Counted from the stretch's first letter, positions 3,209 to 63,998 are shown. The stretch: 64,000 nt of DNA from Candidatus Cloacimonetes bacterium HGW-Cloacimonetes-2 (GCA_002842035.1 PHBP01000001.1:39674-103673); one strand, 5' to 3'. Translations and numbers: made by a program. Notes: generated by a model not told the origin, from the sequence alone.

Positions 3209-3370
3209 GCTGCGCAAGGTGCTGAGATCGTTTCTACGCGTCCCCCGCCACCAAGCCCGGAGCGTATGCAAAGGGCGGTATGCGTATGCCATAGCACAGG
3301 GCGTGAGCCATTGATACACCAGCCCTATATCTCCTCCCTCCCAAATCCCCATTCCCAGATTCATCCCGGA

Positions 3371-3458
3371 GATCTACAGCATATCACCAGCAAATCAAGA
3401 GCAATTCACCTCGAACGTGGTTCGACTTGATTTGCTCTTGATCTCCACTTGATATGCT
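3371..3458 (+). repeat. Intergenic repeat family A, copy 1 (structured ~90 bp element)
   Basis: gatctacagcatatcaccagcaaatcaagagcaattcacctcgaac-gtg-gttcgacttgatttgctcttgatc... This is near-identical to the copies at 39038, 48611 and 56963. Hairpin 3390-3435: gcaaatcaag/cttgatttgc plus tcgaac/gttcga. Confidence 0.85.
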
Positions 3459-3646
3459 ATTGTCCAAGGAGCAGGCAGGACAATCACACAAACTGTATAC
3501 AAATAGAGCTCCACCAGCCTTTGGCAAATTTGCTGCTTGACTTTTTTTCTGCTTACTTTTAAGTCGGATTATCCGGCCTTTAGCTCCCAATCTATGATTG
3601 CCGGCTGAACTTGATATTAACAAAAAATAGATACAGGAGACCTGAA

Positions 3647-9909: not shown

Positions 9910-10008
9910 TGTTTATTCTCCTTTTTGTTCTTTGACATTCATATACAAATAGTGTAAAGCAAAACTGAGATAATGCAAATAGCACTAATTCCTGTATCTT
10001 TACCCTAT

Positions 10009-10228
10009 CTCTTAGCTAACACCTGTACAGCCCCTGTGACTCCGCTGTGGGACAGGGGATTCTCAGCTCTAAGCTGGCGCTGGACAGGAGCTTGCATTGA
10101 GTAAGGCTAGTCTCTTCCCCTTGATACGATGCTTGATTCCTGCTTGTATCCTGCTTGTATCCTGTATGAAGAGGCAGCATCCATCTGATTAACAATGTAT
10201 TAGCAGGTTTTCATTCAAAAGGGAGCAA
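10009..10228 (+). repeat. Intergenic repeat family B, copy 1 (long form)
   Basis: ctcttagc..cagcccctgtgactccgctgtggg..gagtaaggct..cttgatacgatgc, then phased cttgattcctg cttgtatcctg cttgtatcctg tatgaa, then a tail ending at 10228. It aligns over ~220 bp with 25949-26185, and its core aligns with four further copies. Confidence 0.8.
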
Positions 10229-10239
10229 TGGAGTATGTA

Positions 10240-10292: not shown

Positions 10293-13200
10293 TTACTTCA
10301 TAAGTAGCATCTTGTTTGTGCGGCTGTAACCCTTGGTATCGAGTCTGTAGAAATAGACACCTGAGGAAACGCTGCGGTTGGCTTCGTCCCTTCCATCCCA
10401 ATTAAGATGATGTCTGCCAGCAGCTTTGTCACCGCTAAACAGGTTTCTCACCAATTGTCCTCTGATATTATAAATCTTCAAGCTGGTAAAACCGGCTGAA
10501 GCCAGATCAAAGGAGATGGTTGTAGTGGGGTTGAAGGGATTGGGGTAGTTGCCGCGCAGGGCGGTTACCAGCCCGGGAATCTGCTCTTCACCATCCGAAG
10601 GATCATAGGGGAAACGGAAGGAGACTAGATCGCTGGGGCTGCCTTCAATATTGATATATTTGGCTTTGATGTAGTACTGGTAGAGACCGTCGAGGGTGAT
10701 AGTCTCGGTATAGGTCGTGCCTGTAGTCTCAAAGACTTTGGCAAAGATACCATTATCAAAGCGTTTGTACACGTTGTAACCCATCACGGGCAGAACTGGA
10801 TCGTAAGGCTCTGTCCAATTGATCACCAGCTCACCGGTCTCATTGCTGATCGTGAAAGTAGGTGTCATTGGCTTGGGCAGATAGATCAGGGTGAATTCTG
10901 TGTAACGGGCAAGACTTGCAGCATCCAGAGTGAAGGGACCAAAGGTGGAGGATTGATGATTGAACATCGAAGCCTCGGAGAAATAAGTGCCTCTCTTCAG
11001 ATATACCGCAAAGCTGCCATCGGCTGAAGGATGGGCTGCATACTTGTTGCTGCAAACCACAGTTGCCAAAGCAGGGTTGTATTCGGAAGTCGGAATGACT
11101 GTTCCATAAAGCTTTCCGGTCTTTTTGTCCAGGCCACTGAGCTGGAAGTCATCGATAAACCAGCCAAGATTGCTGGTGGCGCCATCAGCACCAAAACGGA
11201 ATCTAAACATCACGTTTTGGCCGTTGTAAGCACCCAGATCAAAGGATGCAGTCTGCCAACCGCTGCTATTTCCGGAGAAACCGGCCTGTCCCTGGAGACC
11301 TGCGATGTTGTTGTGAGGATATCCGCTTTGAGGAGTAAGGATATTCCAGGTATCGCCGCCATTGGTGGAGATGCTAAGGTTTCCGCCGTCAAAGCCTGCC
11401 TCTGTAGCATAGTAATGCTTGAAGGTAAGCTGGCTCTGAGTGGTAAGCAGATAGGCAGGTGTATAGAGCTTGTAATCCACATAATCCGGATAGCTGCCAC
11501 TAAGGTTTGTTGCCCAGACTTTCTCGCCGGAGAAGGCGTTGACCTGGGCAGGATCACCCCAAGTCCAGCCGATTTCGCTTTCGAAATCCGCATTATTGTG
11601 TTCGAAGTCGCTGAATTCATTGGGTATATTGTAGGGAATGTAGAATTCAGTTTCGTATGGTAGAGCGTTGCTGGAAGCAAGGCTGAGGCTCATCGGGATA
11701 TATGTACCACTGCCGGTCTCGCCTGTGAACTGGAGGTTGTAAACATATTGCATCACCCAGCTACCTTTGATGGAGCCGACTGTGATGGTAGGATTGGTAA
11801 TACTAACTCCAGGGAAGGTGCTGGAGAGTGTTCCAGCTACATCCATAGCTTCGACAGCGGTGGGATTCTTTACATTGAGCACGAGCTTTACGGTCTCGCC
11901 TATATCGATCACGCCGTTGTAGCCGGTGCCTTCATCATTGATCAGATAAGATTGGAGGCTAAGCTGGGATGCGTCGATACGGATGCTGAAGGGACGTACC
12001 CATTGGTTTTCACCGGAGACCACAGTCAGGACGAATTCGGCTACGTGTCCATCCGGGCAATCCTCTGCAACTTCAAAGACGAAAGCATCGCGGTTTACGC
12101 CAAGACCTTCGGCTTGAAGCGGATAGTATTCCGAATCACCCTGGGTGATGTTGATGAATTCATCAGTAGTGGTCAGGACAGAACTGATGCCATTTGCGGG
12201 AGCGTTGCCGATATTGCTAAGCTGAATACCGAGCTGGACGGTCTCACCTGGTTCGGCAATATTATTGCCATTGCCATCGGTTATGAAGGTCTGAGCCAGA
12301 ATGAGCTGGGCTTCCACGTGATAGACAGGGACGTTTGTGATGTAGATGGCTCTCTGATTACCCAGGGGTGAGGCTGCAACGGGATAAACGTTGTTGAAGC
12401 TGTACTCCAGACCGCGTGTGCCTGTATGGTCTTCGATACCAATGGAAGCAAAGTTACCATGGTTGGCACCGCTCTGGGAATCGACGTTGTTGAAGGTCTG
12501 ATATTGGATCTTGATAGGTCCATCACCAAGTGAGGTTGAATAAACGGCTTGGTCGTAAAGGATCACTTGGAAGGTCTCCAGCGAAGTGCCGTTCTTACCA
12601 TTCTTCATATTGTACCATTCAACTATGAAAGCATTGTTATTGCGATCGTACCAGGTATAGACTCCGCCACCGGTATGAGTGGCAAGATCATCCCAGAAGG
12701 GAGCGATCATAGGGCTGGGGCCCATTGGACCAGGCAGGCGGTAATTACGAAATTCACCATTTGCGCTGTTGCCCAAGGCTATGAATCCGTTTGAAGAAAC
12801 GGAGATTTGATTGTAAACAATACCATAGAACTGGAAGGGGAAAGGCAGTGTAACAGGAACGATCGAGGTGCAACCAACCTGGTCGCCTTCGTCACCGGAG
12901 GTATAGGCATCAGCGAGAGGAAGCAGAGTTCCCAATCCGCCTTCAGCCGGAGCAATTCCGACCCACTCGAATGTGGGATGGTGTTCGTAGCTCCAGTCTC
13001 CATCGTCATAGATTACATATCCATAGGCATCAGGACCCAGGGGATCTTGCACACCTACGACACCGATTGTAATCGAGAAATCTATGAACTGCTCATAACC
13101 GGCATCAGTGTAGAGCTTGACCCGCATAGGAATAACCATCCCTGGAAGGATTTGCTCGCGGGCAAAGACTGTGAAGTTATCAGTACCAGTCGTAGCAGTG

Positions 13201-15740
13201 GCACCGGAAGCGATATCACCAAAGAAGCCGATGTTATCACTGATGGTTACCAGATCATTCAGGGTATAGAGACGGCCGTATAGACCTGTGATTCCCATCG
13301 GACCAATATTTTGGATACCGACGGTAAGAGGAGCTGTCTCGTTTGGATCGAGAGAGTTGTTTCCACCATCCAGGATAGCAACCGTGCTGAAATTGAACTT
13401 TGCAGATTCAACCGGGATGAATTCGGATACATCATAAGTACCGCCAAGATTATCCGTCAGGATCAGATGCAAACGCAGCATAGTTCCATGAGGAGCAGAA
13501 TTGGAGATATTCATCACGACAGGATTGGTGGATGTGCCCAGGCTACCGCCGGCGATATTGCCATAAACTACAGTAGAATCAGCGATAGTAACATAGGGGC
13601 TGGTGGTGGTAATGTAACCACTGATACCATTGATCGCTGTTGTGCCGGTGTTTTGGAGACCAAAAGAAACTTCGATGGTCTCGCCTGCATTGGCTATAGA
13701 GTTGTTGTTACCCTGAGAAGCACCAAAGTTGTCATCATCCAAGAGGACAGCACCGGGCACGAGGGTAGTCTCTTCTACTACGGTAATGGTAGTCTGATTG
13801 GGCAGATAGTTGTGCTTGCTCACCGTGATCACTGCGTTTCCGGCAGTCATACCGGCTGGAAGCACCAAGATTACATTGCCTTCCTCATCAGTAAAGCCTC
13901 GGGAAATCACTTGCATCCCCTGTGAGAGGGTTACGCTGGCTCCGACTACTACACCGGCAGTATCAGCTACAGAGACATCAAGCAGGCTCAGTCCCAAAGG
14001 AATGGAAGTGTCAACAGTCACTGTGAACTGGCTGGGTATCCCGGTGAAGATTTCCATCGTAGGATCACCCATAAGGTTTGCCCAGTGGTTAAACTTTACA
14101 ACGTTTGAAGGAGATGAAACACCAAAGATTTGGTGCATATTAAATTTACCTGCCAGCAGTGCTTCACCCATTGTGCGCATACCAGCCTGGTAGATACCGT
14201 GAATGATACCGCCATTGATGGCGTTGTTGAAAGTGGTATGAGTACTGGAGGTGGACATACCGATCGATGTAACAGCACCCTTGGGCGCTGCTACCGTACC
14301 CACACGAATGAAGGTCTCGGTCTTTGCCAAACCGCCGTTGTAATTACCTGTTCCGCAGGTGATGATCGAGGTATGGGGAAGCTTGAATCCATTGATCAGG
14401 GATTCAGAAGGGCTCCAGCCTGCCAGATCGATATAGCCACGGAAATTGAAGAATCCCACGCCTTGGTTCAAACCGGAATTGATTCCTGAACTGAGGCCAT
14501 CCGCTCCATAGACCTCAATGTAGGTCATATCAGGATTGATCTGCTGGGAAGCTTCCATAAGGTATTTTGCCATATAGACAGTCGAGATACCCGAAGGAGT
14601 CCAGTCTGCTGCCAGGAGCATCTTGTTGAGCCATGATGCAGTGGCAATGTTCAGGTTCTTCTCAACCAGATAGATCTTGTTTAGCACAACCTGAAGCTGG
14701 GAGATGTTTTCGACCGAGATACGTCCGATAAAGACATCACCAACCCCATCGGCACCGGCCAGATGAGTGTAAGGATAATCTCCGCCGCCGCTGCTTTCTG
14801 TAAAAGCAGGTATGGCATAAGAGCCGGCAGTATCACCCAGTAGGATGATAAAATCAGGCCTGGTGGTGGGATCGTTGTACAAATTCTGCAAGTAAGTCTT
14901 GATGGCTGTGGTAGAAGTACCTGCTGTTGAAGTACTGACAACCCGGACATCTGCACCCTTTTGTCTCTTCCAAAGCACGTAATCATCGAGAGCTTGGACA
15001 AAGGCAGGTTCGGTGTTGTTACCATAGAGCAAAAGATATCTTACAGGGCTGTTCACCGGAATCAGATTTCTGTAATCATTGTAGTTTAGGAGTGCCATAC
15101 TGTACATCTTGTCAAATGCTGCAGAGATTTCAGTAGGCTCACTGATTAGTTCGTTTACACCTTGTTCGGCAGTGAAGTCCACGCGAAAGTCTATGCTTTC
15201 CCTCAGGTTCAATTCACCGGTTACAGAATTGTAAAAGAAAGGACTGATCTGGATATTAACTATACGAAAGTCCCTCATGACTACGGGCTGGCCATACTCG
15301 ATGGTATTAGCCGGGAAGACTCCGCCGCCATTGAAGTAATCTTCATTGACAACAAAGGACTTGGGGCTTTCCAGATCCACTGATTCCTGGACAGGATAGG
15401 GTGTGAATGCTCCAAGGCTTACCGAGCGAACAGACTGCGGTGTTACACTAACCGATCCTCTTGCAGGGACGATGATTGAGGTGCCAATGATCGGCAACTC
15501 AGGCATTCCCTGCTCGATGGTGTAGGCAGCACCGGGCAGCACGATATGCTGGTAGGTCTTGTTGCCAATCGTCTCCTCAGAGAGACTATACTGGGGCATC
15601 TCAAATCTGATATCCATACCGGAGGCAGATTTGGAGCTGATCTGAAACGCTTGGTTAAGCGATTGCGCTGTCTCTGATCCGGCTACTCCATAGAGCAGAC
15701 CGAAGCAAATAACAAGTAGCAATAGGGCATACTTCTTCAT
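10293..15740 (-). CDS. Very large secreted gingipain-like (peptidase C25 family) multidomain protein with T9SS C-terminal sorting domain (C25-1)
   Basis: Signal peptide MKKYALLLLVICFG (ATG 15740 after gaggaa; the listed ORF starts at an upstream TTG). C25-like blocks YLLLYGNN, FIILLGD, GGGDYPYTHL and IITCGTGNY. Repeated Ig/CARDB-like modules, a lectin/MAM-like module ending GWFIDDFQL, and an FN3-like module. C-terminal domain (CTD) NYPNPFNPTTTISF..GVYFYRL..MLLMK. Confidence 0.85.
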   Translation of the reverse strand: MKKYALLLLVICFGLLYGVAGSETAQSLNQAFQISSKSASGMDIRFEMPQYSLSEETIGNKTYQHIVLPGAAYTIEQGMPELPIIGTSIIVPARGSVSVTPQSVRSVSLGAFTPYPVQESVDLESPKSFVVNEDYFNGGGVFPANTIEYGQPVVMRDFRIVNIQISPFFYNSVTGELNLRESIDFRVDFTAEQGVNELISEPTEISAAFDKMYSMALLNYNDYRNLIPVNSPVRYLLLYGNNTEPAFVQALDDYVLWKRQKGADVRVVSTSTAGTSTTAIKTYLQNLYNDPTTRPDFIILLGDTAGSYAIPAFTESSGGGDYPYTHLAGADGVGDVFIGRISVENISQLQVVLNKIYLVEKNLNIATASWLNKMLLAADWTPSGISTVYMAKYLMEASQQINPDMTYIEVYGADGLSSGINSGLNQGVGFFNFRGYIDLAGWSPSESLINGFKLPHTSIITCGTGNYNGGLAKTETFIRVGTVAAPKGAVTSIGMSTSSTHTTFNNAINGGIIHGIYQAGMRTMGEALLAGKFNMHQIFGVSSPSNVVKFNHWANLMGDPTMEIFTGIPSQFTVTVDTSIPLGLSLLDVSVADTAGVVVGASVTLSQGMQVISRGFTDEEGNVILVLPAGMTAGNAVITVSKHNYLPNQTTITVVEETTLVPGAVLLDDDNFGASQGNNNSIANAGETIEVSFGLQNTGTTAINGISGYITTTSPYVTIADSTVVYGNIAGGSLGTSTNPVVMNISNSAPHGTMLRLHLILTDNLGGTYDVSEFIPVESAKFNFSTVAILDGGNNSLDPNETAPLTVGIQNIGPMGITGLYGRLYTLNDLVTISDNIGFFGDIASGATATTGTDNFTVFAREQILPGMVIPMRVKLYTDAGYEQFIDFSITIGVVGVQDPLGPDAYGYVIYDDGDWSYEHHPTFEWVGIAPAEGGLGTLLPLADAYTSGDEGDQVGCTSIVPVTLPFPFQFYGIVYNQISVSSNGFIALGNSANGEFRNYRLPGPMGPSPMIAPFWDDLATHTGGGVYTWYDRNNNAFIVEWYNMKNGKNGTSLETFQVILYDQAVYSTSLGDGPIKIQYQTFNNVDSQSGANHGNFASIGIEDHTGTRGLEYSFNNVYPVAASPLGNQRAIYITNVPVYHVEAQLILAQTFITDGNGNNIAEPGETVQLGIQLSNIGNAPANGISSVLTTTDEFINITQGDSEYYPLQAEGLGVNRDAFVFEVAEDCPDGHVAEFVLTVVSGENQWVRPFSIRIDASQLSLQSYLINDEGTGYNGVIDIGETVKLVLNVKNPTAVEAMDVAGTLSSTFPGVSITNPTITVGSIKGSWVMQYVYNLQFTGETGSGTYIPMSLSLASSNALPYETEFYIPYNIPNEFSDFEHNNADFESEIGWTWGDPAQVNAFSGEKVWATNLSGSYPDYVDYKLYTPAYLLTTQSQLTFKHYYATEAGFDGGNLSISTNGGDTWNILTPQSGYPHNNIAGLQGQAGFSGNSSGWQTASFDLGAYNGQNVMFRFRFGADGATSNLGWFIDDFQLSGLDKKTGKLYGTVIPTSEYNPALATVVCSNKYAAHPSADGSFAVYLKRGTYFSEASMFNHQSSTFGPFTLDAASLARYTEFTLIYLPKPMTPTFTISNETGELVINWTEPYDPVLPVMGYNVYKRFDNGIFAKVFETTGTTYTETITLDGLYQYYIKAKYINIEGSPSDLVSFRFPYDPSDGEEQIPGLVTALRGNYPNPFNPTTTISFDLASAGFTSLKIYNIRGQLVRNLFSGDKAAGRHHLNWDGRDEANRSVSSGVYFYRLDTKGYSRTNKMLLMK

Positions 15741-15859
15741 AAGATTTTCCTCAACCTTTATCAAGACTTAATGTTAGACACTTATGCAAGGATTGTTCCC
15801 AAACAATACCATATCTTTGCAAGCTTTTAGCCCACATAGCGGTGAGTGGCTTCAATCCA

Positions 15860-18002: not shown

Positions 18003-19201
18003 CAGAGGGCTATCCTCAAATACTTGCGCTTACCGCATTTGATAACCATCCCGTCCTTGAGCACCAGTTCGCTATCAAAAGCAGTGACCTTTTCTCCATC
18101 GACGGAGACGCCACCCTGCATTATCAATCGCTTTGCCTCACCATTAGTCTCGCAGAGACCACCTTCAGTAAGGATTCGCATCAGCTTCATATTGGCTTCA
18201 TTGGCTTTGAATAATGGGATATCTTCCGGAAGCTCTTTTTGGGAGAACTGCTTTTCAAAGGCTTCACGCGCGGTATCCGCAGCCTCTGCCCCATGGTAGA
18301 GCTTTACAATCTCCCAACCCAGACGTTTTTTCATCAGCATCGGATTGGTGCCCTTTTCAAGCTCTGCCTTGATCGCTGCAATCTCGTCCGGGTGAAGGGT
18401 CGTGGCATAGTTATAGTAATTCACAATCAGCGAATCCGGTATGGACATCACTTTGCCAAATTTCTCGTTGGGCGGATCAAAGACGGCAATATAATTGTTC
18501 ATCGATTTGCTCATCTTGTTGATCCCATCAGTTCCCATCAGGATAGGAGATAGAACTGCAATCTGCTGTTCCTGTCCAAAATATCTCTGCATATCGCGTC
18601 CTGCCAGGATATTGAACTTTTGCTCAGTCGCACCCAGCTCGATATCGCTTTCGATAGCCACAGAATCATATCCTTGCAGAATCGGATACATAATCTCGTG
18701 CATCCCGAGGGGGAGGCCTTGTTCATAACGATTGCGGAATGTGTCGTGAGCCAGAAATTGCGCTAGGGTAAACTTGCCCATCAGTTTGATAACATCGGTC
18801 ATCCCCATCTTGCCAAACCATTCTGTCTGGTAGCGAATCTCTGTCTTGGCAGGATCGAGCACGGTAAAGAGTTGCTCCATATACTTTGAGCTATTTTCCA
18901 AAATCAGTTCTTTGGTAAGCGGCGGACGCGATTCGTCTCTGCCGGTAGGATCGCCGATCTGCGCGGTAAAATCACCGATAATGATGACACCGGTGTGACC
19001 CATATCTTGAAAATCTCGCATTTTGCGGATCGGCACCAAATGCCCGATATGTACGTCAAATCCGGTGGGATCGATACCATATTTGATACGCAGCGGCTTT
19101 CCGGTCTTCTCTGATTTCTCCAGCTTTTTGACCAGTTCGTCCAAAGGGATGATTTCCTCAACCCCTTTCTTTATGATCTTGAGTTCATTTTCAAACTTCA
19201 T
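18002..19201 (-). CDS. tyrS: Tyrosine--tRNA ligase
   Basis: HIGH-type motif (VHIGHL), KMSKS, and a C-terminal S4-like domain. I preferred the ATG at 19201 (MKFENELKII, preceded by aaggaa) over the listed upstream GTG at 19237. Confidence 0.9.
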   Translation of the reverse strand: MKFENELKIIKKGVEEIIPLDELVKKLEKSEKTGKPLRIKYGIDPTGFDVHIGHLVPIRKMRDFQDMGHTGVIIIGDFTAQIGDPTGRDESRPPLTKELILENSSKYMEQLFTVLDPAKTEIRYQTEWFGKMGMTDVIKLMGKFTLAQFLAHDTFRNRYEQGLPLGMHEIMYPILQGYDSVAIESDIELGATEQKFNILAGRDMQRYFGQEQQIAVLSPILMGTDGINKMSKSMNNYIAVFDPPNEKFGKVMSIPDSLIVNYYNYATTLHPDEIAAIKAELEKGTNPMLMKKRLGWEIVKLYHGAEAADTAREAFEKQFSQKELPEDIPLFKANEANMKLMRILTEGGLCETNGEAKRLIMQGGVSVDGEKVTAFDSELVLKDGMVIKCGKRKYLRIAL

Positions 19202-19321
19202 ATTCCTTATCCTATATACACTTACGTGGTCCGTCACTAAAGTCTGACCGGAACTCTTTTGTCAAGCGAAAGATCAGCTTTTTGTGCGCTAGACCCATTC
19301 TAAATGGCTTTAATTGCTTTG

Positions 19322-19440
19322 CCTTATCCGCCCTCTTTCGTTGAAACAATGCTAACACATTGCAGGTCAATTGATTCATCCTTGTTCATACAGGATACAA
19401 GCAGGATTGATGCAGGGTACAAGCATCCATCCAAAAGGGA
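19322..19440 (-). repeat. Intergenic repeat family B, copy 2 (reverse orientation)
   Basis: The reverse complement reads ggatgcttgtaccctgcatcaatcctgcttgtatcctgtatgaacaaggatga..gttagcattgtttcaacgaaagaggg. This aligns with copy 4 (32905-33020). Confidence 0.8.
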
Positions 19441-19492
19441 AGGCGCACGAACCAAGGAGATTCATGCGCCATCTATAGTGTGGAATTGCTTA

Positions 19493-19975
19493 TTATCTTA
19501 GCAGCTCGCTTATGCGGGCTGTCTCGCGTTCCATCTGCAAATCCGGCTTTGATAGCATATAGGTGATGATCGAAGCTTTGAGCGGAATAGCACCTTTAGG
19601 GAGTGCAAATCTCAATAGCTGATTGACTGCACCTGTACCGCCCATCCCCTTGAGAGGAAATCCCATTGTGAAGAAAGGCAGTAGCTTTACGCCTTTCATT
19701 GACTGGGTTTCCTTGATGTACTTGAGTATGAGTGGAGCGGATCTGAAGGCCCAAACAGGGCTACCCGCAATCACCACTTCATAATCTTTGGGATCTGGTG
19801 CATTGCGCAGCTCAAAGTTCATCGAGGTCGGCGAAGCTTTGGGATTGAGCGGTTCTACCGTCTCGAGCTCGTGGCTATCGACATGATGCCCTTCGGCTAT
19901 AAGCCGTTCAGAAATCATCTTGGCAAACTTGCGAGTGTTGCCGGTTTTGGAGTGGAAAACTACGAGTATCTTCAT
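19493..19975 (-). CDS. Flavodoxin-family protein
   Basis: MKILVVFHSKTGNTRKFA FMN-loop motif, 160 aa. Its start overlaps the stop of the upstream 5'-nucleotidase gene by 4 nt. Confidence 0.75.
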   Translation of the reverse strand: MKILVVFHSKTGNTRKFAKMISERLIAEGHHVDSHELETVEPLNPKASPTSMNFELRNAPDPKDYEVVIAGSPVWAFRSAPLILKYIKETQSMKGVKLLPFFTMGFPLKGMGGTGAVNQLLRFALPKGAIPLKASIITYMLSKPDLQMERETARISELLR

Positions 19976-21630
19976 CTAATCATCTCCGGGCTGGGTCTGG
20001 CATTATCATTACGCTCCCAGCGATCGTCAATTCTGGTCCTTACCGGGCTGTTGTTGCGGAAGTATCTTACGATCGAATCACGCAGATTAATCTGATGATA
20101 GGTAATATCTTCCGCAGGAACGGACGTGAGCAGAGTAAGGCCGGCATTGCCTTGCATTAGGAAGTCTGTGGTTGCTACAGTATAAATCCTATTCGGATCC
20201 CAAGGCTGACCACCAATACGGAGAGTTGTAACGCGCTCCATATCTGGCAGTTTCTTGGAGTAAACGACGTTTACACCGGATACTACAAGACCGTGGCGTC
20301 CGCCAGCTACACGGGTTTCTATGATGCGACGCAGGAATTCACCGGTGCAGCGGAAGCTGACTACCATATTATCAAAAGGCATAACGTCGAAGACACTGCG
20401 ATAGGTCACTGGGCCGGCAGCGATATCAGCACGGATACCACCGAGATTGAGGAAGGCAAAGTCTGCATTGACATCTGCTCTCATCGCGTCAACCACTGTA
20501 TTACCCATCAAGCTTTGTGCATCGACATTGGTACGTGAAAGATAGAGCCCGGCACTGCCGACGATCTCATCCATACCTCGCTCCGCGATGGCGACCTGAG
20601 CTTCTATGATCTCGCTTATCTCCTCATCCGGAATGAATTGATCTTCAAAGAGGGTAATCATCGAGCCTTCACGAATTGCCGGGGATTCATAACCGCTGAC
20701 GGTCTTGGTCATTGGATCGATCTTGAGGGTTATCCAGCCAAGGTTTGAGCCATAGGCATAGCCTTGAATTACCATAGTATGAGTCACGGGGTCAATCCAT
20801 GGCTTTGGTACGCCACGGTGCATATGGCCACCGAGAAAGATATCGATTCCGGGAACTTCACGAGCTATCTCCTGGGCATCATAACCCCAGACCGCGGTGC
20901 GTTCTGCGAAGAGAGGATTGCCTTGATTGTCATAGCGTGTAAGATAAGTCTCCTCGACATCATAAGGCAGGCCGGCATGACCAAGAACGATCACGATATC
21001 TACTCTTTCCACTCTGCGGACGTGATTGACCCACTTCGTGAGCTCCTCTTTTTCGCTGAGAAAGTCTATCCCACGGATATTCTCCGGGAAACTCATCTTT
21101 TCTGTATCAGTAGTGGTCATACCAACGATACCGATCTTTACACCGAGTCTCTCGATTATAGTGTAAGGACGCAGGTAATCAGGAAACTCGCCTGTGTCTG
21201 TATAAACCACATTGCTGGAAACAATTGGGAATTGCGCCATACGCAGGGTTTCGATCAGATCAGCCGGACTGATGTCAAACTCGTGATTACCAATGGTCAT
21301 TGCGTCATAACCAATGGCATTCATATAATCCATCACAGCACGACCATTGGTCACTGTTCCTACGGGACGTCCTTGAAAGAAATCACCAATATCAAAGAGC
21401 AAGGTGTCTCGATTGGGACCTTTCAGGCTGCGCACGTGCTTTATCAGGGTCGCCGCGGAAGCACCTCCACCCAGTTGGGGAGGAAATTCCGGGTTCATAA
21501 AGGTTGCTTTTGCCCGGTCGATACCGCCGTGGACATCGTTTGACCATAGGATGTCCAAGCGGAAATCTTCTGCTGCCAACAGGCTTATCAGCACCAGGCT
21601 AAGCAGCGTTAATACTATGTTTTTTTTCAT
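19972..21630 (-). CDS. Secreted bifunctional metallophosphatase/5'-nucleotidase (UshA-like)
   Basis: Signal peptide MKKNIVLTLLSLVL, calcineurin-like motifs NDVHGG, GDFFQG and GNHEFD, and a C-terminal 5'-nucleotidase-type domain. Confidence 0.85.
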   Translation of the reverse strand: MKKNIVLTLLSLVLISLLAAEDFRLDILWSNDVHGGIDRAKATFMNPEFPPQLGGGASAATLIKHVRSLKGPNRDTLLFDIGDFFQGRPVGTVTNGRAVMDYMNAIGYDAMTIGNHEFDISPADLIETLRMAQFPIVSSNVVYTDTGEFPDYLRPYTIIERLGVKIGIVGMTTTDTEKMSFPENIRGIDFLSEKEELTKWVNHVRRVERVDIVIVLGHAGLPYDVEETYLTRYDNQGNPLFAERTAVWGYDAQEIAREVPGIDIFLGGHMHRGVPKPWIDPVTHTMVIQGYAYGSNLGWITLKIDPMTKTVSGYESPAIREGSMITLFEDQFIPDEEISEIIEAQVAIAERGMDEIVGSAGLYLSRTNVDAQSLMGNTVVDAMRADVNADFAFLNLGGIRADIAAGPVTYRSVFDVMPFDNMVVSFRCTGEFLRRIIETRVAGGRHGLVVSGVNVVYSKKLPDMERVTTLRIGGQPWDPNRIYTVATTDFLMQGNAGLTLLTSVPAEDITYHQINLRDSIVRYFRNNSPVRTRIDDRWERNDNARPSPEMIR

Positions 21631-21634
21631 TGGA

Positions 21635-23071
21635 TTACCATACAAACTTAAGACCGGTCATCAGGGTAATAAAGTTCTCAGAAACCTTGTCTGGATTGTC
21701 CCAGCCACGATCGGTCAGGTTAATATAGGAATTCGGCCACAGCGCATAAGTGCTGCTACCGGTGTAGATTTTGTCGTTGTAATAGCTGTCGCGAAAGAGA
21801 TCAAGACTCTCATACTCGCGCCAGGCATATCCCAGACCGATATCAAGGCTAAGACCTTCTGCCAGAGCAATGCTACTACCGGCTGTGATCATCGGAGTGA
21901 GGGTTTTCTTTGCCAAAGTCAGGGGAACAACTACGCCTGCAACTGTCTGGGATTCGTTTTCGAGTCTCCAGTTGGTGACGGCTTGGAAACCGATTCTGAA
22001 GGGGATGCGGTTGCGGATATGGTGTTCCACACCGGCATAAAGATTGTAAACATCATCGTACATATCTGAGATATCAGTCCACTGCACGCGCTCGATATCG
22101 AGATTGAACCAGGTACGAACCACGTTTCTGGGCTGGTAATTGATACCTACTCTGATCTCAGAAGGCATAATGTAATCAACTTCGTAGTCATTGGCGACAT
22201 CAACGGCAGCGTGTCCCAGCCAGGCATCCTGTTGGATAGTGCTGGTTCCGCTGCAATCAAGAGTGCTCTTCATTGTATAGGCAGCAGCAAGACCAAAGCG
22301 AGGGCCAAGTTTCATACTGAGACCAGCCTTAATCTGGTTGCCTTCCAGGCTGAATTCGTTGGTATAAGTAGAATCAGGCAATACATCCGCTCCAACCTGA
22401 TCTTCGGACCACTTTGTCCAACGGATAGTCTTCATCTGGGTCACATCGCCATTCACAAGACCAAAGTCAAAACCAAGATTCAGGTCATAACCATCAGCAA
22501 TAGCAAAACCAACAGAGGCAAGCCCGGCAGCCTTGTTTAGCAGACCTTCGTTTTCAATGCTGTTGATTGCTATCTTCTCGGGATACCCATCGTTATCGGT
22601 GCCACGGTTGTTGCGGATCTCTTCCAGGTATTTACCATCGAAGTTGCTGATCGGCATATAATACAGACCTGCACCCAAACGGAACTTTCCAATGCCCATC
22701 GAGGCATAGCCGGAGCCAGCGTAATCGTAAAAAGCATTGATATTTGAGTTGATTACTGCATCGTCTATATAGGCATCAAAGCTATTATATAGCGGGATGG
22801 CACGGTTGTCTTCGTTGCGGTTGATACCCACTGTGCCTTGGAGACCAAAGGTCTTGCGCATCAGGGTCAGATTAGCAGGATTGGTGGCAATGGCAAAGGG
22901 CTGTATGTCGTTATAGACAGTTGCACCGCCCATAGCGAAAGCCCGGGGATCCATTGTGCCGATCTTATTGCCAAAGTAGGTATCAGTGATCGACCAGGCA
23001 TTGAGGCTGATTCCCGCGCCAAGGATCAGGAGAGTCAGGAAAAGCGCTTTGAAAGATTTATAAGAAGTCAT
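21635..23071 (-). CDS. Outer-membrane beta-barrel protein, FadL/OMPP1-like
   Basis: Signal peptide; N-terminal block DPRAFAMGGATVYNDIQPFAIATNPANL, which resembles the FadL/TodX hatch motif; alternating beta-strand pattern; aromatic C-terminus LKFVW. Confidence 0.55.
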   Translation of the reverse strand: MTSYKSFKALFLTLLILGAGISLNAWSITDTYFGNKIGTMDPRAFAMGGATVYNDIQPFAIATNPANLTLMRKTFGLQGTVGINRNEDNRAIPLYNSFDAYIDDAVINSNINAFYDYAGSGYASMGIGKFRLGAGLYYMPISNFDGKYLEEIRNNRGTDNDGYPEKIAINSIENEGLLNKAAGLASVGFAIADGYDLNLGFDFGLVNGDVTQMKTIRWTKWSEDQVGADVLPDSTYTNEFSLEGNQIKAGLSMKLGPRFGLAAAYTMKSTLDCSGTSTIQQDAWLGHAAVDVANDYEVDYIMPSEIRVGINYQPRNVVRTWFNLDIERVQWTDISDMYDDVYNLYAGVEHHIRNRIPFRIGFQAVTNWRLENESQTVAGVVVPLTLAKKTLTPMITAGSSIALAEGLSLDIGLGYAWREYESLDLFRDSYYNDKIYTGSSTYALWPNSYINLTDRGWDNPDKVSENFITLMTGLKFVW

Positions 23072-23081
23072 TTATCCTCCA

Positions 23082-25733
23082 TTAGAAACGATAATCAAGT
23101 GATAAGCGGATGGTGTTTTCAACGTGCTGAACTCGTTCCCAGTAACTATTGGCAGGCAGGTCAACATTGTATTCGCGAATCCTGAGTTCCTTGTCCTGAT
23201 AAGTCTTGTTTCTGAATTTCAGCGTCATATAAAGGTTCTGAGAGATTCGGCTGTGGATGGCTACCCATGCCTTGGCGCCTTTCTCTCCCATAAAATCTAT
23301 TTCCATATCTTCCCAATCCCAGTGAGAAATGCCGTGTCCATACCAATAGAGGAAGGCACCCTGCAGCTTGAGAGAAGGACTAAAGTTGTGAGTATAATTG
23401 ACTCCAATGTAATCACCCTGCATCAAGGTACTGGCAGCAGCCATACTGTTGTTACCGCCTGCAGCAGGATTGGTGAGCGAGGTATAGGGAGGTCCCCAGA
23501 CTGTATTGTAGCGATACTCAAACTCCAGGAAATCCCTCGCAGAGAGGAAAGTCCTAAAGCTAAGAGTATATTCGTTTGTCTTTGAGACTCCACGCTCGGC
23601 AGTATCGTCGTAACGATTTACCTGGTTCTTATAGCGCAATCTCATAGCAACCTGATACAGGGGACGAAACTCCAATTCACTCTGGAATCTTGCGCTTCTG
23701 CGACCATCGGAAAGTCTTTCCCAGATATCAAGATAGCTACGACCAACCGTAAAGTAGTTGTTGAACTTGTATCTCGTTTCAAAGTAGATACCGTGTTCCG
23801 GCTGGGCTTGCGAGGCATTCTGATAAATATCCGAGAGTGTAGGATTGGTAAGCGCATATATGTACTTTTCCAGGACGGTATCATCGAATCTCTCATGCTC
23901 TGAGAAGGCATTGCTATAAGGATTGTCAAAATTGACATCGTAATGCCTGAGTAGAGCCAGAAAATACAAATTTTCATACTGAGTATAAGCACTCACCAAG
24001 TAAGCCTTGGGATCATCTCCCAGCTTGAAATCTTCACCCCTCACGGAGAGCTCTGCATACTCGCCCTGCACCGATACATTACCCACTACGGTATGTCCGT
24101 CAAAACCGATCACTCTGCGATAATCGCGCACATAATCGGCAGTGCTGGTGCTATAAAGCCCTGCTATCTCGGAATCATTTATCTTGAAAACCTTATGATA
24201 GTATGAGTTTCTGATGAAATCCAGCTTCAGGGTATTCCAATCCGGCACCACAAAGTGAGCATTATCATACAAAGCCGTATAGGTAGTAAATCCCAGCTTG
24301 GTACCGATCAGAGGGCTTACCTGGAGGTGTGTACCCCAGATCGTCTCATCTACAAAGTTCTTGCGATAGGCAAGGTTGATATAAGGCACAGCATAAGCTC
24401 CGCCTGCCACAAGCTCTTGATTGAAGTGAGCTTCAGCTTCGCGGAGTTCATCCTCGTCCCAACGGATGGTCGGATTCACATAAGAAAGCACCTGATACTT
24501 GCCATCAGCACCCACAACAGGCGTGATATAATTCGTAGGATTGCCTGAATCATCAGTCTCCCTCTCCATATAAACGATCGCATCTTTCTTGTCTTGTGAG
24601 ACAAAGGCAGAGAATCCGATCAAGGGATTATTGAGCTCGATCGCGGCACCTCTCAGAGCATAAAGCTGCGTTCTGGAAAGATCAGGAGTGATACCCAAGA
24701 TACGTTTACTAAAGCCATATCCGGTCTTTCTGGCGCTGTAGAAATCTGTATTTTCCATCACCAGACCTTCACCATAAGTAGCTCTATAATGACCCAGGTA
24801 AAGCTTGAGTGATGTCCTCGGAAGGAATGCCAGATCAGTGTTTTCGTATCCGGCATAATACTTTGAATTAGCGATCAGATCTTCACCCGTGCTCTTCCAA
24901 ATATCATCCTCGCCCTTTGCGGTATTGTGCATCCAGCCAATCTTCAAGTGATTGCCATAACGCGCCCTAAGCTTGACTATATAGTCAGGATCGATCTGAT
25001 CCAGATTAAAATAACCCCAATACGAGAGGCGTTTATCTTGCGGCACAACAGTCGTTACGCCGTAATCCTCTCTCAGGAAGGGCTCGTGATACATATCGTA
25101 TGCGCCTTCCTCGTAATAACGGGTATAATACTGCATCTGAGCGTCAAAGTAAAGCCTGTTGCGAACCGGCGGATTCCTGTAATAAACGTAGGACCGCAGA
25201 TTTGTATAGCCATAGTGCGAGAGACCGACTGTATTTCGCAGGTCTCGCATATCAGCTATGGTATCTCCACGGGCAACACGCTTCAGGATTCCAACCGCAT
25301 CGACCGGCGAGACGTTTGGCAAGCTGATAAAATCGTCAAAATGCATCTTGTTAACATTCTGCGGTGTCATCAGATAGTCTTCCCAGACGTCGCTCATTCC
25401 TTCTGAGCCGCCTTCGTTGCTATCCAACCTTTCCAAGAGATCCATAATCTCCTCGCGGCGAGCCGTCACTTCATCTTCTTCGCGATAAAGCGACACCACG
25501 ACTTGATCCCTGATCCTCAGCATCGTGATCTGATCTATCGAAGCGATGTTCCTCAGATCGTAAATGCTCTCGAAAAAGCTGATATAAGTGCGGTAATTAT
25601 AGATATCATTTGCCTGAATCTCAGAGATTGGCAGACGCATGATCTCTTCCAGAGAAGCCGTGTTCAAATCGACCTTCTGGGCGTAAAGCCCTATCGCAAA
25701 CAGGGCTATAAACATGATCAAAAACTTCTTCAT
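23082..25733 (-). CDS. Large outer-membrane protein with N-terminal helix-hairpin-helix (ComEA-like) motifs
   Basis: Signal peptide MKKFLIMFIALFAIGLYA (ATG 25733). HhH-like VDLNTASLEEIMRLP and FISLPNVSPVDAVGILK. About 700 aa of Tyr/Gly-rich beta-strand sequence ending in the OMP-type terminus LSLDYRF. Confidence 0.6.
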   Translation of the reverse strand: MKKFLIMFIALFAIGLYAQKVDLNTASLEEIMRLPISEIQANDIYNYRTYISFFESIYDLRNIASIDQITMLRIRDQVVVSLYREEDEVTARREEIMDLLERLDSNEGGSEGMSDVWEDYLMTPQNVNKMHFDDFISLPNVSPVDAVGILKRVARGDTIADMRDLRNTVGLSHYGYTNLRSYVYYRNPPVRNRLYFDAQMQYYTRYYEEGAYDMYHEPFLREDYGVTTVVPQDKRLSYWGYFNLDQIDPDYIVKLRARYGNHLKIGWMHNTAKGEDDIWKSTGEDLIANSKYYAGYENTDLAFLPRTSLKLYLGHYRATYGEGLVMENTDFYSARKTGYGFSKRILGITPDLSRTQLYALRGAAIELNNPLIGFSAFVSQDKKDAIVYMERETDDSGNPTNYITPVVGADGKYQVLSYVNPTIRWDEDELREAEAHFNQELVAGGAYAVPYINLAYRKNFVDETIWGTHLQVSPLIGTKLGFTTYTALYDNAHFVVPDWNTLKLDFIRNSYYHKVFKINDSEIAGLYSTSTADYVRDYRRVIGFDGHTVVGNVSVQGEYAELSVRGEDFKLGDDPKAYLVSAYTQYENLYFLALLRHYDVNFDNPYSNAFSEHERFDDTVLEKYIYALTNPTLSDIYQNASQAQPEHGIYFETRYKFNNYFTVGRSYLDIWERLSDGRRSARFQSELEFRPLYQVAMRLRYKNQVNRYDDTAERGVSKTNEYTLSFRTFLSARDFLEFEYRYNTVWGPPYTSLTNPAAGGNNSMAAASTLMQGDYIGVNYTHNFSPSLKLQGAFLYWYGHGISHWDWEDMEIDFMGEKGAKAWVAIHSRISQNLYMTLKFRNKTYQDKELRIREYNVDLPANSYWERVQHVENTIRLSLDYRF

Positions 25734-25948
25734 AGCTGTTCCTTGTGCGCTATACAAAGGTTTTGCACCTTCTTTCGCTATTTTCACAAACTAATTCGAA
25801 TTGCTAATTCTGTAAAGTCTTTTTTTGGGAAGCCTGCTCAGATTGTCCCCAGCCGCAAAATGCACTGCAAAATCTGTTGTTTTCGAGCCTGACTAGTCTG
25901 CACGGCTTTGGCTCTTTCGACTGTGAAAGACCTATTTCTTTAAGCTCA

Positions 25949-26185
25949 CTCTTAGCAAGGTGGTGTGCAGCCCCTGTGATTCTGCTGTGAATCCCCTGTG
26001 GGACAGCAGATAGACAGCTTCCGCGCAGGCGCTTTACAGGTGAGTGCTTAGAGTAAGGCTTTGCATTGCTTGCTGCTTGATAGGATGCATCTACCCTGCT
26101 TGTATCCTGCTTGAATCCTGCTTGAACATCCAATATAGAGCTATCCTGCAATGCTTTAGGAATGTTCAATTGAATAGGAAGTATA
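25949..26185 (+). repeat. Intergenic repeat family B, copy 3 (long form)
   Basis: ctcttagc..cagcccctgtgattctgctgtg..gagtaaggct..cttgataggatgc, then ctaccctg cttgtatcctg cttgaatcctg cttgaac, then cctgcaatgctttaggaatgttcaattgaatagga. Confidence 0.8.
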
Positions 26186-32797: not shown

Positions 32798-32904
32798 CGT
32801 GATTATTTCCTTTTGATCAGCTTTGTTTACCCAAACAGCCGATCCCGATCCAGTTTTGGAACCTTGACTTCTTTGTCCACAAAAAAATGCTCTGAGCCCC
32901 TTTC

Positions 32905-33020
32905 GCTCTGCTTGATATCCTGCATCTATCCTGCTTGTATCCTGCTTGAATCCTGTATGAACAAGTATGATCTATCTGTCATATAAGCGGTTAGCATTGT
33001 TTCACTGAATAGGAGCGCAG
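32905..33020 (+). repeat. Intergenic repeat family B, copy 4
   Basis: cttgatatcctg catctatcctg cttgtatcctg cttgaatcctg tatgaacaagtatgatc..gttagcattgtttcactgaataggagcg. Confidence 0.8.
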
Positions 33021-33079
33021 TGGGATTGTGGCTATTGTGTTGAGAAGGACAGCTTTGGCGATATTGGCGTTTAGATATA

Positions 33080-33112
33080 GAAAAACGGACAGATCGGTTG
33101 ATCCGTCCGTTT
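33080..33112 (-). terminator. Rho-independent terminator of the carbamoyltransferase gene
   Basis: Minus strand: aaacggac-ggatcaaccgatct-gtccgttt, with the T run continuing as ttttt. Confidence 0.7.
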
Positions 33113-33132
33113 GAATAGTAATGTCTTGAGGC

Positions 33133-39030: not shown

Positions 39031-39037
39031 TTTGCCT

Positions 39038-39134
39038 TGATCTACAGCAGATCACCAGCAATTCAAGAGCAATTCACCTCGAACCGCGTTCGACTTGATT
39101 TGCTCTTGATCTGCTCTTGATATCGGCTTGATTA
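39038..39134 (+). repeat. Intergenic repeat family A, copy 2
   Basis: tgatctacagcagatcaccagcaattcaagagcaattcacctcgaac-cgc-gttcgacttgatttgctcttgatctgctcttgat... Confidence 0.85.
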
Positions 39135-43458: not shown

Positions 43459-43490
43459 GAAGCCCGGACTTTTCTCCGGGCTTTTTTTTA
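43459..43490 (+). terminator. Rho-independent terminator of the M28 gene
   Basis: agcccgga-cttttc-tccgggct followed by tttttttt. Confidence 0.85.
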
Positions 43491-43516
43491 TAATCGGATT
43501 GCTTATGCTCGCCGCT

Positions 43517-43630
43517 TCAATGGATGCTCCTATCCTGCTTCTACCCTGCTTCTATCCTGCTTGAATCCTGCATGAACAAGAATGATACGACTGTCCTACA
43601 ATGCTTTATGATATTTCCATCGATAAGGGG
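43517..43630 (+). repeat. Intergenic repeat family B, copy 5
   Basis: ggatgctcctatcctg cttctaccctg cttctatcctg cttgaatcctg catgaacaagaatgata..cctacaatgctttatga. Confidence 0.8.
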
Positions 43631-48522: not shown

Positions 48523-48610
48523 TATAATCTCCTGATAATATTAGTATTTAGAGCATTGGTAAATTCCAGCACAATGCCTTATCGTGTCAAGTCATCTTTT
48601 AGCTGTCCTT

Positions 48611-48700
48611 TGATCATCAGCATATCACCAGCAAATCAAGCCGAAATCACCTCGAACCACGTTCGACTTGATTTGCTCTTGATATGCTCTTGATCTGCTT
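48611..48700 (+). repeat. Intergenic repeat family A, copy 3
   Basis: tgatcatcagcatatcaccagcaaatcaagccgaaatcacctcgaac-cac-gttcgacttgatttgctcttgatatgctcttgatctgct. Confidence 0.85.
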
Positions 48701-48787
48701 TTGACTAAAAGGATGCAGGGAATGATATAGCTCTATGTCTTAATAGTGGAATTGCTTGTGAAAAACCAGACAATTCCATTGACATAA

Positions 48788-56788: not shown

Positions 56789-56917
56789 TTAGTGACACCA
56801 TTCTGAGCGACAGGATCTCGCTCCCACAAGCATCCATATCCGCCACTCTCCCACCTCTCCTTCAGTAGTAATCCATTAAAAGCTTACAGAATATCCGCTT
56901 ACTGGTCCTCCATCCAT

Positions 56918-56955
56918 TATGCAAGCAGGATACAAGCAAGATTGATGCAGCATTC
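56918..56955 (-). repeat. Intergenic repeat family B, copy 6 (short, reverse orientation)
   Basis: The reverse complement reads ctgcatcaatcttgcttgtatcctgcttgcataatgg. It directly abuts family A copy 4. Confidence 0.7.
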
Positions 56956-56962
56956 CAATAGG

Positions 56963-57051
56963 TGATCTACAGCATATCACCTCGAAATCAAGAGCAATTC
57001 ACCTCGAACCGGGTTCGACTTGATTTGCTCTTGATCTGCTCTTGATCTGCT
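56963..57051 (+). repeat. Intergenic repeat family A, copy 4
   Basis: tgatctacagcatatcacctcgaaatcaagagcaattcacctcgaac-cgg-gttcgacttgatttgctcttgatctgctcttgatctgct. Confidence 0.85.
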
Positions 57052-57085
57052 TTAGACATTGCAGCGAGGATGATGCAATCTATCA

Positions 57086-60833: not shown

Positions 60834-60931
60834 GGTATCCTCCATCAGTGGATATTGTCTTTATTTGGTATATCTTGGATGAACCCGGCTTTGGCATTGG
60901 TAGTCTTTGCGAGATTCATTCAGCATACTCC

Positions 60932-63900: not shown

Positions 63901-63998
63901 CCTTGCAGATAGGTCTTGATCTGATTAGCACTGTTGCCGATCGTCTCTGTGGTGGCAAGGATTACATTAAAGCCTTCCACTTTCTTCCAATCGATAAA
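60981..63998 (-). CDS. Secreted gingipain-like cysteine peptidase (C25 family) with T9SS C-terminal sorting domain (C25-3), 5'-partial
   Basis: The frame stays open to the window edge: FIDWKKVEGFNVILATTETIGNSANQIKTYLQ aligns with the interior of C25-1 and C25-2. Dyad blocks VNYTAHGSETSW and VVVGNCCLTSAF. Lectin-like module ending CAWIDDIVFP. CTD NYPNPFNPETTIRF..GVYLYRM..MILMK. Confidence 0.88.
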   Translation of the reverse strand, partial: FIDWKKVEGFNVILATTETIGNSANQIKTYLQGLWNNATADNPAPSYLLIVGDVAQVPSNNGQTSGGHITDLTYVRLQGTDYVPEMYFGRFSATTAAEVTNQVNKTLMHEQYTMPSDAYLSEVVMIAGVDSSWSPTHANGQINYGVNNYFNAAHGITSHTYMYPASGSSDNAIIQDVSNGVGYVNYTAHGSETSWADPTFTVSNVNSLQNANEYPVVVGNCCLTSAFDTGVSFAEAWLRAVNKGGVAYIGGTNSTYWDEDYWWGVGHKPPVVGTGSPFVANRTGAYDAVFHDHDEPFADWAATTGAMTFMGNMAVVASNSTRINYYWEIYSVMGDPSLGIYMGIPPVNNANVPQTTFIGLSSLEMTVDPFTYAALSMNGVLKGVGLADASGQLTLSYSPFDAPGTAQLVLTRSRRRPTFINIDVVPNAGPYVMVSAITVNDGNNNIAEAGENVSLDLNLNNVGIQDASNLTATISTGSPYITFNATSANLPNVNSGANLNVTGVFTAQISPMIPDQTNVQLDFVISDGTNNWNSTRYMMVSAPNVELASTTFADSNNNGFNESGETVVVTVTLQNTGHMVAESGSVALQLNSQYATLENNSFMLPSIGIGNSVPLNFTVTLGAGIPDGTIIPIGFAYTAGMQMVNHAIMLPVGVIAEGFEANNFTTFPWVNTSANPWTIVSGGTNVHSGTYATKSGTIGNNASTTLQVTLNVGSDGNISFWRKVSSENNYDWLKFSIDNTEMGSWSGTQDWAQVTYPVTAGTRTFKWTYSKDVSYASGSDCAWIDDIVFPMSGNANVPMIYLPVTSLAYGEVNSGEEVSEDFVIRNLGNVSLTGSVTVPAAFELSNNGSVLPDSYNYSIPAGGTMLFSLGYSASAPAVINETITITSNDPANAVSIINISLQVVDNDDPSVSPMITKLEANYPNPFNPETTIRFSTKEAGIVSLKVYNLRGQLVRNLVSSNLPAGKHSIVWNGLDNNGNSVSSGVYLYRMDSANYSKTLRMILMK

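Follow-up and report, generated by a model that had tools for sequence, protein, structure and literature searches.

Several described bacterial sequences combine short repeated units with distinct ends or a dispersed, intergenic distribution. BOX of Streptococcus pneumoniae is composed of an end module A, variable tandem B modules and an end module C; its ends can pair, it reaches about 100 copies per ~2-Mb genome, and to our knowledge no helical-period logic has been described for it. Repetitive extragenic palindromic (REP) sequences are imperfect palindromes of 20-40 nt that bear a GTAG signature and are partnered by a RAYT, and binding of chromosomal proteins has been reported for REP/BIME elements. 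Direct repeats of 11 bp are known from the R1 parC centromere, which carries ten of them. Dispersed REPINs have been described in proteobacteria (PMC3116915). BrickBuilt of Porphyromonas gingivalis consists of a leader, spacer-less tandem repeats of 23 nt, a tail and small inverted ends, is strictly intergenic and occurs in 19 copies with demonstrated bidirectional promoter activity (PMC4596501). In the left end of IS1535, a member of the IS607 family, four helically phased 9-bp direct repeats lie at 20-60 bp from the end; they nucleate a filament in which transposase dimers are bound cooperatively on one face (PMC6188088). Here, family B is analysed, a repeat with an array of 11-nt units found in a 64,000-nt stretch of Candidatus Cloacimonetes bacterium HGW-Cloacimonetes-2 (GCA_002842035.1, PHBP01000001.1:39674-103673; hereafter, the window) and first pointed out in an earlier note made from the sequence alone. 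The reading that we favour, with somewhat better than even confidence, is that B is a non-autonomous DNA element resembling MITEs (miniature inverted-repeat transposable elements), and that its phased array is a platform for cooperative protein binding. B moreover belongs, as one branch, to a larger group of period-11 elements, a scope that the earlier note had missed.

A profile search (nhmmer, with a profile built from 55 aligned copies) gave exactly six family-B matches in the window (E 1.6e-29 to 4e-16), and the repeat search of the window also recovers the family (sets D2, D5, D7 and I2-I8 minus I4), both in line with the six intergenic copies first proposed. Likewise, the proposed array of 11-bp units is found by Tandem Repeats Finder (TRF), which reports period 11 at every copy with 1.9-4.8 repeat copies each. 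The copies are as follows.

10110-10232, + strand: B copy 1 (nhmmer 10115-10223, E = 3.6e-27; TRF period 11 at 10130-10164)
19331-19442, - strand: B copy 2 (nhmmer E = 1.4e-26), flanked by the terminator of the flavodoxin gene and the promoter of TyrRS
26068-26179, + strand: B copy 3 (nhmmer E = 1.6e-29; TRF 26095-26126, period 11)
32904-33015, + strand: B copy 4, with 4-5 units (nhmmer E = 5.4e-27; TRF 32908-32961), flanked by the OTCase terminator and the EF-G promoter
43507-43630, + strand: B copy 5, with 5 units (nhmmer E = 1.7e-26), immediately 3' of the terminator of an M28 peptidase gene
56856-56965, - strand: B copy 6, diverged but full length (nhmmer profile positions 4-113, E = 4e-16), adjoining a family-A element

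Copy 1 may serve as an example of the layout, with its left inverted end, 3-4 units at 10121-10164, an inverted unit, the tail and the right end AAAGGGAGC; an orthologous copy is present in locus L007 (loci of related genomes are given here by L numbers). Copy 6 had been taken for a short, tail-less copy of 38 bp, which does not hold, as it aligns over profile positions 4-113 and is simply diverged. The motif CTTGNATCCTG, allowing up to one mismatch, occurs 18 times in the window versus 6.6 ± 2.6 times in shuffled sequence, and none of 100 shuffles reaches 18.

A sharp rise and fall of the information content bounds the element to a block of ~125 nt. Its 5' end is pyrimidine-rich (GCnCTCyCyTTGA) and is followed directly by an aberrant first unit (yAGGATG), while the array proper begins about 10-20 bp from the 5' end and comprises two to five contiguous head-to-tail units of 11 nt, CCTGCWTGnAT, with the core array sequence CCTGCTTGTATCCTGCTTGAATCCTGCATGAACA. 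Two, three, four and five units are found in 2, 11, 37 and 5 copies, respectively, four being the mode. After the array comes an invariant TGAACA and then an inverted unit, which reads GCAGGAA or CATCCATCAAG depending on the subfamily. The tail that had been described behind the core is real in the alignments, if loosely conserved (CTGTCCTGCAATGCTTTAGCA), and the element closes with a purine-rich 3' end, TTGAAAGGGAGnGC(TAAG). Both ends together form imperfect terminal inverted repeats of 12-14 nt (5' GCnCTCCCTTTGA / 3' TCAAAGGGAGnGC), whose pairing energy of -12.1 kcal/mol compares with -8.7 for shuffled ends and -6.0 for pairing against the element interior (p = 6e-11). Across copies, mean column identity is 56%. 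B has no open reading frame (ORF), and a small ORF or leader peptide was rejected because an 11-nt period with varying unit number breaks the reading frame. A plain variable-number tandem repeat (VNTR) arising by local slippage was rejected as well, since the array comes with the same dispersed, non-repeat ends and tail in 64 copies; slippage does happen, but inside the element.

When the pattern CCTGCTTGNATCCTGNNTGAA was scanned against one genome per species, at least 67 stretches were found, nearly all of them from a single metagenome-assembled genome (MAG), CAYSSP01, labelled 'uncultured Candidatus Cloacimonadota bacterium'; matches in other taxa were singletons at about chance level among the matches listed. 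As the window and CAYSSP01 are ~85-91% identical, with some tracts at 99-100%, their sources are, judged by sequence identity, sister species or strains. Absence of further copies outside the window had been named beforehand as the result that would speak against a dispersed family; at least 59 distinct copies were found in the CAYSSP01 loci examined. The density of B is roughly one copy per 10 kb. All 59 keep the 18 specified bases of the core pattern exactly. The profile can find copies without an exact core, as copy 6 of the window shows, and no such copy was found in the CAYSSP01 loci. The strictly intergenic position in both orientations, too, is borne out in the window, and among 61 copies only 4 overlap an ORF of at least 100 aa. 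Searches in viral contigs, phage records and plasmid records gave no matches to B, and full-text literature searches gave no description of such repeats in Cloacimonadota. Family B is confined to a single Candidatus Cloacimonadota species group, which belongs to the Cloacimonadaceae.

Between orthologous copies, substitutions accumulate about five times more slowly in the core of B than elsewhere in the element. In three orthologous pairs (copies 1, 3 and 5), the 34-nt core, formed by the final two to three units together with TGAACA, shows 6 substitutions in 102 positions versus 61 in 218 for the remainder of the element (Fisher p = 1.6e-6); accordingly, either selection or gene conversion keeps the core in place. 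The arrays themselves grow and shrink by whole units, as deduced from clean 11-nt indels, one of which gives the array of copy 5 an extra unit relative to its L053 ortholog, and another of which separates the array of the head module beside copy 1 (H1, described below) from its counterpart in L007. All five window copies with an exact core occupy the same positions in CAYSSP01. Copy 1 is also found in six strain-level contigs, its gap unchanged in length. As a side observation, identity to CAYSSP01 is mosaic: a tract of 6.4 kb (19380-25829 versus L026) is 98.9% identical and stands beside tracts of 85-91%, and the gap of copy 4 (32798-33132 versus L070) has ~100% identity. Because of this mosaic, recent homologous exchange between both lineages is suggested, with a putative breakpoint in the intergenic region of copy 3.

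Tests for an RNA nature of B gave a uniform answer. RNAalifold found four pairs at -0.9 kcal/mol and no compensatory changes, hence no consensus structure, and a column-wise helix scan of B gave a trivial four-pair match only. In five candidate helices of B, the arms of one copy pair no better than arms combined across copies (p = 0.12-0.70), folding z-scores of ten copies on each strand are ordinary (-1.4 to +0.8, one at -2.9), and Rfam scans with gathering and E-value thresholds returned only tRNA and chance-level matches, none of them to B. The stems of the hairpin module H2, a companion of B, contain 10 G:U and 10 A:C mismatches, therefore neither strand is favoured. With respect to genes, 21 copies are oriented antisense-tandem, 13 sense-tandem, 10 convergent and 7 divergent, and an alignment of the copies' flanks revealed no conserved promoter or terminator. 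As structure, pairing, folding, orientation and flank tests were all negative for RNA, we conclude that B is a DNA-level element and not a structured or cis-regulatory RNA, which supports the preference of the earlier note for a DNA element over a sense RNA leader. Orientation relative to local GC skew is unbiased as well (31:33), on which basis replication polarity, as expected for a transposase targeting single-stranded DNA or for a signal like the FtsK-orienting polar sequences (KOPS), was rejected.

A function at the RNA level could still be conceived in the form of a small RNA, or of a platform or sponge in 3' untranslated regions whose single-stranded 11-nt repeats hold an RNA-binding protein. 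Several copies do follow a stop codon without an intervening terminator and would thus be co-transcribed, predicted folds leave most of the array unpaired, and the reverse strand offers GCAGGAU repeats, the CAGGAU units of which resemble CsrA sites. Given the lack of orientation bias, of conserved flanking promoters or terminators, of structure or covariation and of any Rfam match to B, however, such a function is very improbable; a CsrA-like GGA sponge in particular was rejected, since the units of sister families have no GGA. Even less credit is given to a mobile promoter cassette of the BrickBuilt kind, the least probable of the explanations considered, in which TGAACA and a TnCAAT located 18 nt downstream would serve as an outward-reading promoter, with the ribosome-binding-like AAAGGGAGG behind it. 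BrickBuilt does carry promoters (PMC4596501), the 3' end of B resembles the local Shine-Dalgarno sequence (cf. AAGGAG before the AhpC start), and copy 5 contains one, albeit weak, sigma-70-like match, TGAACA-18-TACAAT. Yet, the putative -10 box is poorly conserved and mostly reads TGCAAT, TGTATG or TACAAG, only ~21 of 55 copies aim their 3' end at a gene start, and the 26 promoter-like matches in the scanned region do not exceed the 21.4 ± 4.9 found in shuffles.

Copies of B lie ~30-60 nt from gene 3' ends, often reaching the T-run of the terminator, and 90-300 nt from start codons. B occupies, in either orientation, the stretch from a terminator to the promoter that follows. In the window, terminators flank copy 4 (33083-33112, - strand), copy 5 (the M28 peptidase gene terminator, 43459-43484, + strand) and a copy of the palindromic family A at 39 kb. 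All eight window gaps of at least 200 nt with a gene 3' end hold A or B, compared with one of five divergent gaps, although this occupancy is partly circular because the element itself lengthens its gap. By arithmetic from their lengths, the elements account for ~29% of the window's intergenic DNA, which totals 4.75 kb. The neighbouring genes encode housekeeping proteins and peptidases secreted by the type-IX system (AhpC, TyrRS, EF-G, OTCase, C25 and M28 peptidases; Por_Secre_tail domains).

This near-saturation of terminator gaps is one of the observations that could be explained by a boundary element domesticated by the host, the array of which would be bound or wrapped by a chromosomal protein between transcription units, thereby insulating them or relieving supercoiling behind terminators. 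The binder would be, for instance, a nucleoid-associated protein, a transcription roadblock or gyrase wrapping ~130 bp, and the period rather than the unit sequence would count. Independence of orientation, the core constrained in place, the constancy of the 11-bp period among families whose units are unrelated and the occurrence of different families in the same gap of different species (see below) all agree with this explanation, and E. coli REP/BIME elements, which are found at the 3' ends of genes and are bound by gyrase and IHF, offer a parallel. On the other hand, the invariance of 18 bases in B implies that recognition is sequence-specific and not a matter of bendability alone, the coexistence of A, B, H1, H2 and other families in one genome would require several proteins, no protein candidate was found, and the gaps are perhaps long owing to the elements they contain. 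Host domestication is unlikely, although among the alternatives we place it first.

In the favoured reading of B as a MITE-like element with a protein-binding array, the family would have spread as DNA, moved in trans by a transposase recognising its ends. The direct repeats, spaced one helical turn apart, would seat several copies of one sequence-specific DNA-binding protein on the same face of the helix; with 11 bp per unit versus ~10.5 bp per turn, the drift amounts to ~17 degrees per unit, so that four units remain on nearly the same side. Such a binding array on one helical face is plausible, with the in-place constraint of the core in its favour and the alignment on one face being a matter of geometry. 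A fixed period with changing units would reflect conserved protein spacing combined with diverging DNA specificity, palindromic members such as family A would correspond to two such ends fused, and the present copies of B would be old and no longer visibly moving, their core being kept either by a protein that still binds or by gene conversion. Matches to known binding motifs were also sought by eye: B shares only TATCC with the DnaA box and has TG where the sigma-54 motif requires GG, and motifs of extracytoplasmic function (ECF) sigma factors or LexA-like motifs around TGAACA do not fit either.

Several results weigh against this reading. B shows no evidence of having moved recently: five copies are syntenic in CAYSSP01, copy 1 is unchanged in length in six strain contigs, and neither empty sites nor presence-absence polymorphism were found among the compared relatives. 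A consistent target-site duplication is not visible at the ends of B and A, the exact termini of which are uncertain; no transposase was detected among 20 window ORFs screened with Pfam; and a crude end-pair scan for a full-length partner element over 611 kb, using an overly strict pattern, gave one irrelevant pair. No candidate for a protein binding B was identified. Moreover, the closest mechanistic precedent, the ends of IS607 elements, is devoid of the terminal inverted repeats that B has, and constraint of the core in place is unlike abandoned transposase sites and points to host use or gene conversion. The sole, indirect hint of movement is that other species hold different families in the same gap. 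Hence, the MITE-like character proposed in the earlier note stands in part: B is short, non-coding, dispersed and of high copy number and has complementary ends, i.e. the structure of a MITE, whereas evidence of mobility in the form of target-site duplication, empty site, polymorphism or transposase was not found. By the tests described, it is neither a structured RNA nor a REP/REPIN nor a plain VNTR.

Alternatively, B could be a purely selfish, dead MITE, the core of which is kept uniform by gene conversion among copies sharing ~34 identical bases and the placement of which reflects nothing but tolerated insertions. The copies are indeed old and diverged, with no recent movement, their placement fits purifying selection against insertion into genes and promoters, families turn over between species, and 34 nt of identity in the core corresponds to roughly the shortest stretch on which RecA-type exchange can operate. 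However, invariant and free positions alternate base by base (N in CCTGCTTGnATCCTGnnTGAA), which looks like base-specific selection and not like conversion of whole tracts, and all 59 cores in one genome are intact, with no degenerate copies despite a profile able to detect them. We rate this explanation as unlikely, a place behind that of a domesticated boundary element.

The design of B recurs in relatives that have no B. In other Cloacimonadota, the loci around TyrRS homologues (73-87% identity) gave no B, A or H2, but their gaps hold the same design of a pyrimidine-rich end, 11-nt direct units, one or more inverted units and a purine-rich end, with unit sequences unrelated to those of B. 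The units found in these loci and in CAYSSP01 are the following.

L074: period-11 unit CGGTATCATAT
L075: period-11 units CCTGCACGCCT and CTAACCGCTTT
L076: period-11 unit CCGACTGGATA
L077: period-11 unit CTGCAGAGAGT
L079: period-11 unit ACATGGGTGTC
L080: period-11 unit CGGTATCATTn
CAYSSP01: further period-11 units GCGCTCCTGCC, CCCGGGAATCT and GTGATTCCCTA

In L075 and L080, such elements lie in the flavodoxin-TyrRS gap in the same orientation as copy 2 of the window, and L080 holds another in the gap equivalent to that of copy 3. L053 and L060, too, contain elements built in this way from units other than that of B, and the unit families include B, A, CGGTATCAT, CCTGCACGCC and ACATGGGTGTC. In 170 kb not chosen for B (the window and L074-L078), period 11 is seen in 21 of the 40 tandem arrays, while every other period contributes four at most. 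As relatives repeat the design with unrelated units and period 11 dominates the arrays, the invariant is the 11-nt period together with the overall design, not the unit sequence. More broadly, it may be speculated that Cloacimonadaceae carry elements of ~100-130 bp at most transcription-unit boundaries, with the 11-bp period as sole invariant, forming a genome-wide boundary system derived from domesticated mobile DNA and amounting to more than junk. Its arrays would let an insulator, roadblock, topoisomerase or nucleoid protein dock or wrap, and one family would take the place of another at the same site as the specificity of that protein drifts. This wider proposal is unlikely.

In place of family A at window site 48598-48707, CAYSSP01 (L053 5171-5480) carries a different insert of 309 bp between the same identical flanks, which contains another palindromic period-11 element with GCCGCGATCAT units and CCCTTTGG/CCAAAGGG ends; the site looks like an insertion hot spot or a case of replacement in place. 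Family A itself is a near-perfect palindrome of ~100 bp with inverted 11-nt units (CTTGATnTGCT) around TCGAAC..GTTCGA and matches on both strands. Two B copies adjoin it. Its copies in the window, for which no strand is assigned, are listed here.

3368-3464, no strand: family A copy, repeat set D1
39037-39132, no strand: family A copy between two convergent terminators
48610-48706, no strand: family A copy, with the different insert at the same site in CAYSSP01
56961-57057, no strand: family A copy adjoining B copy 6

Other modules join B on its 5' side, where about 14 of 64 copies have a head module, H1 or H2. H2, present in 18 copies, forms a long hairpin of ~130 nt. The head of ~110 bp that had been noticed in copies 1 and 3 was correctly recognised and is a separate module, H1, with a period-11 array of its own.

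9999-10111, no strand: H1 head module joined to copy 1 on its 5' side; the sequence is palindromic in part and has an array of period-11 units around CCCCTGTG
25941-26058, no strand: H1 head module joined to copy 3, with the array CCCCTGTGAAT at 25971-26000

Besides the window, head modules occur in L009, L012, L026, L046, L049, L056, L062, L063 and L071, and orthologous copies can differ in this respect, as copy 3 has H1 in the window and H2 in CAYSSP01 (L026). A public gene call of 43 aa (window 9973-10104; L001 9806-9937) lies wholly within H1 and is probably a spurious ORF on the repeat.

Some further repeats were observed in passing. In L075, ~13 tandem copies of an 8-nt unit (CACCACTT / TCACCCCT) are found at 19407-19517, just upstream of a tRNA gene. 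L079 contains at 18902-20170 a region of 1.27 kb without plausible ORF and with many hairpins and a 43-nt tandem repeat, which ends in four ACATGGGTGTC units and has no Rfam match. An adjacent 56-nt inverted repeat in L077 (2170-2282, intergenic), 73% complementary and with arms 1 nt apart, may be another palindromic element family. In the window, three paralogous genes for C25 (gingipain-like) peptidases with type-IX C-terminal domains are located at 10293-15764, 57141-60845 and 60981-63980, and their conserved 3' ends appear as DNA repeats D3 and D4.

Family B itself is ordinary, selfish-looking DNA; unexpected are the strict period-11 rule, the near-saturated terminator gaps and the constrained core. 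A period of strictly 11 nt across families and species points to a constraint from protein spacing or DNA geometry. If the array is indeed a transposase platform, the model of a helically phased filament would extend beyond IS607; if it is used by the host, a compact bacterial boundary element would be at hand. In practical terms, these elements matter for annotation and regulatory modelling of Cloacimonadota, which are abundant uncultured members of anaerobic digesters, the 11-nt step changes represent a ready marker for strain typing, and the repeats probably break short-read assemblies of Cloacimonadota genomes.

Compared with known systems, B is closest in architecture to BrickBuilt, a comparison made by description and not by sequence. 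Both are composed of leader, array, tail and small inverted ends, are intergenic at tens to hundreds of nt from coding sequence, multi-copy and species-restricted, and occur in hosts of the Fibrobacteres-Chlorobi-Bacteroidetes (FCB) superphylum. In contrast, the BrickBuilt unit has 23 nt instead of 11, its 19 copies compare with about one B copy per 10 kb, it has a bidirectional promoter whereas no promoter is supported in B, and a wider set with fixed period and varying units such as that around B is not described for it. In array logic, B is closest to the ends of IS607 elements and to iteron centromeres with 11-bp repeats. Like IS1535, in which the repeats start at ~20 bp and span ~40 bp, B has short direct repeats one helical turn apart near its end; IS1535, however, uses 9-bp motifs at 10-11-bp spacing instead of contiguous 11-mers, and IS607 elements encode TnpA and TnpB and have no terminal inverted repeats, while B has inverted ends and no gene, and no IS607 TnpA was present among the screened ORFs of the window. 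With ParR-parC and iteron systems, B shares contiguous 11-bp direct repeats, along which in those systems a small DNA-binding protein polymerises on one face of the helix, but a centromere occurs once per replicon beside the par genes, whereas B, which has inverted ends and a tail, is scattered in copies that number dozens to hundreds. BOX is, like B, a modular, dispersed intergenic repeat with a variable tandem middle and pairing ends, although its tandem module measures 45 nt and its host belongs to another phylum. Identity with REP/REPIN was rejected, since the core of B is a direct-repeat array without such a palindrome and its consensus has no GTAG. In placement and mosaicism, nonetheless, B is closest to REP/BIME elements, both being high-copy intergenic repeats at gene 3' ends, made of combinable modules, specific to species and persisting vertically over long times.

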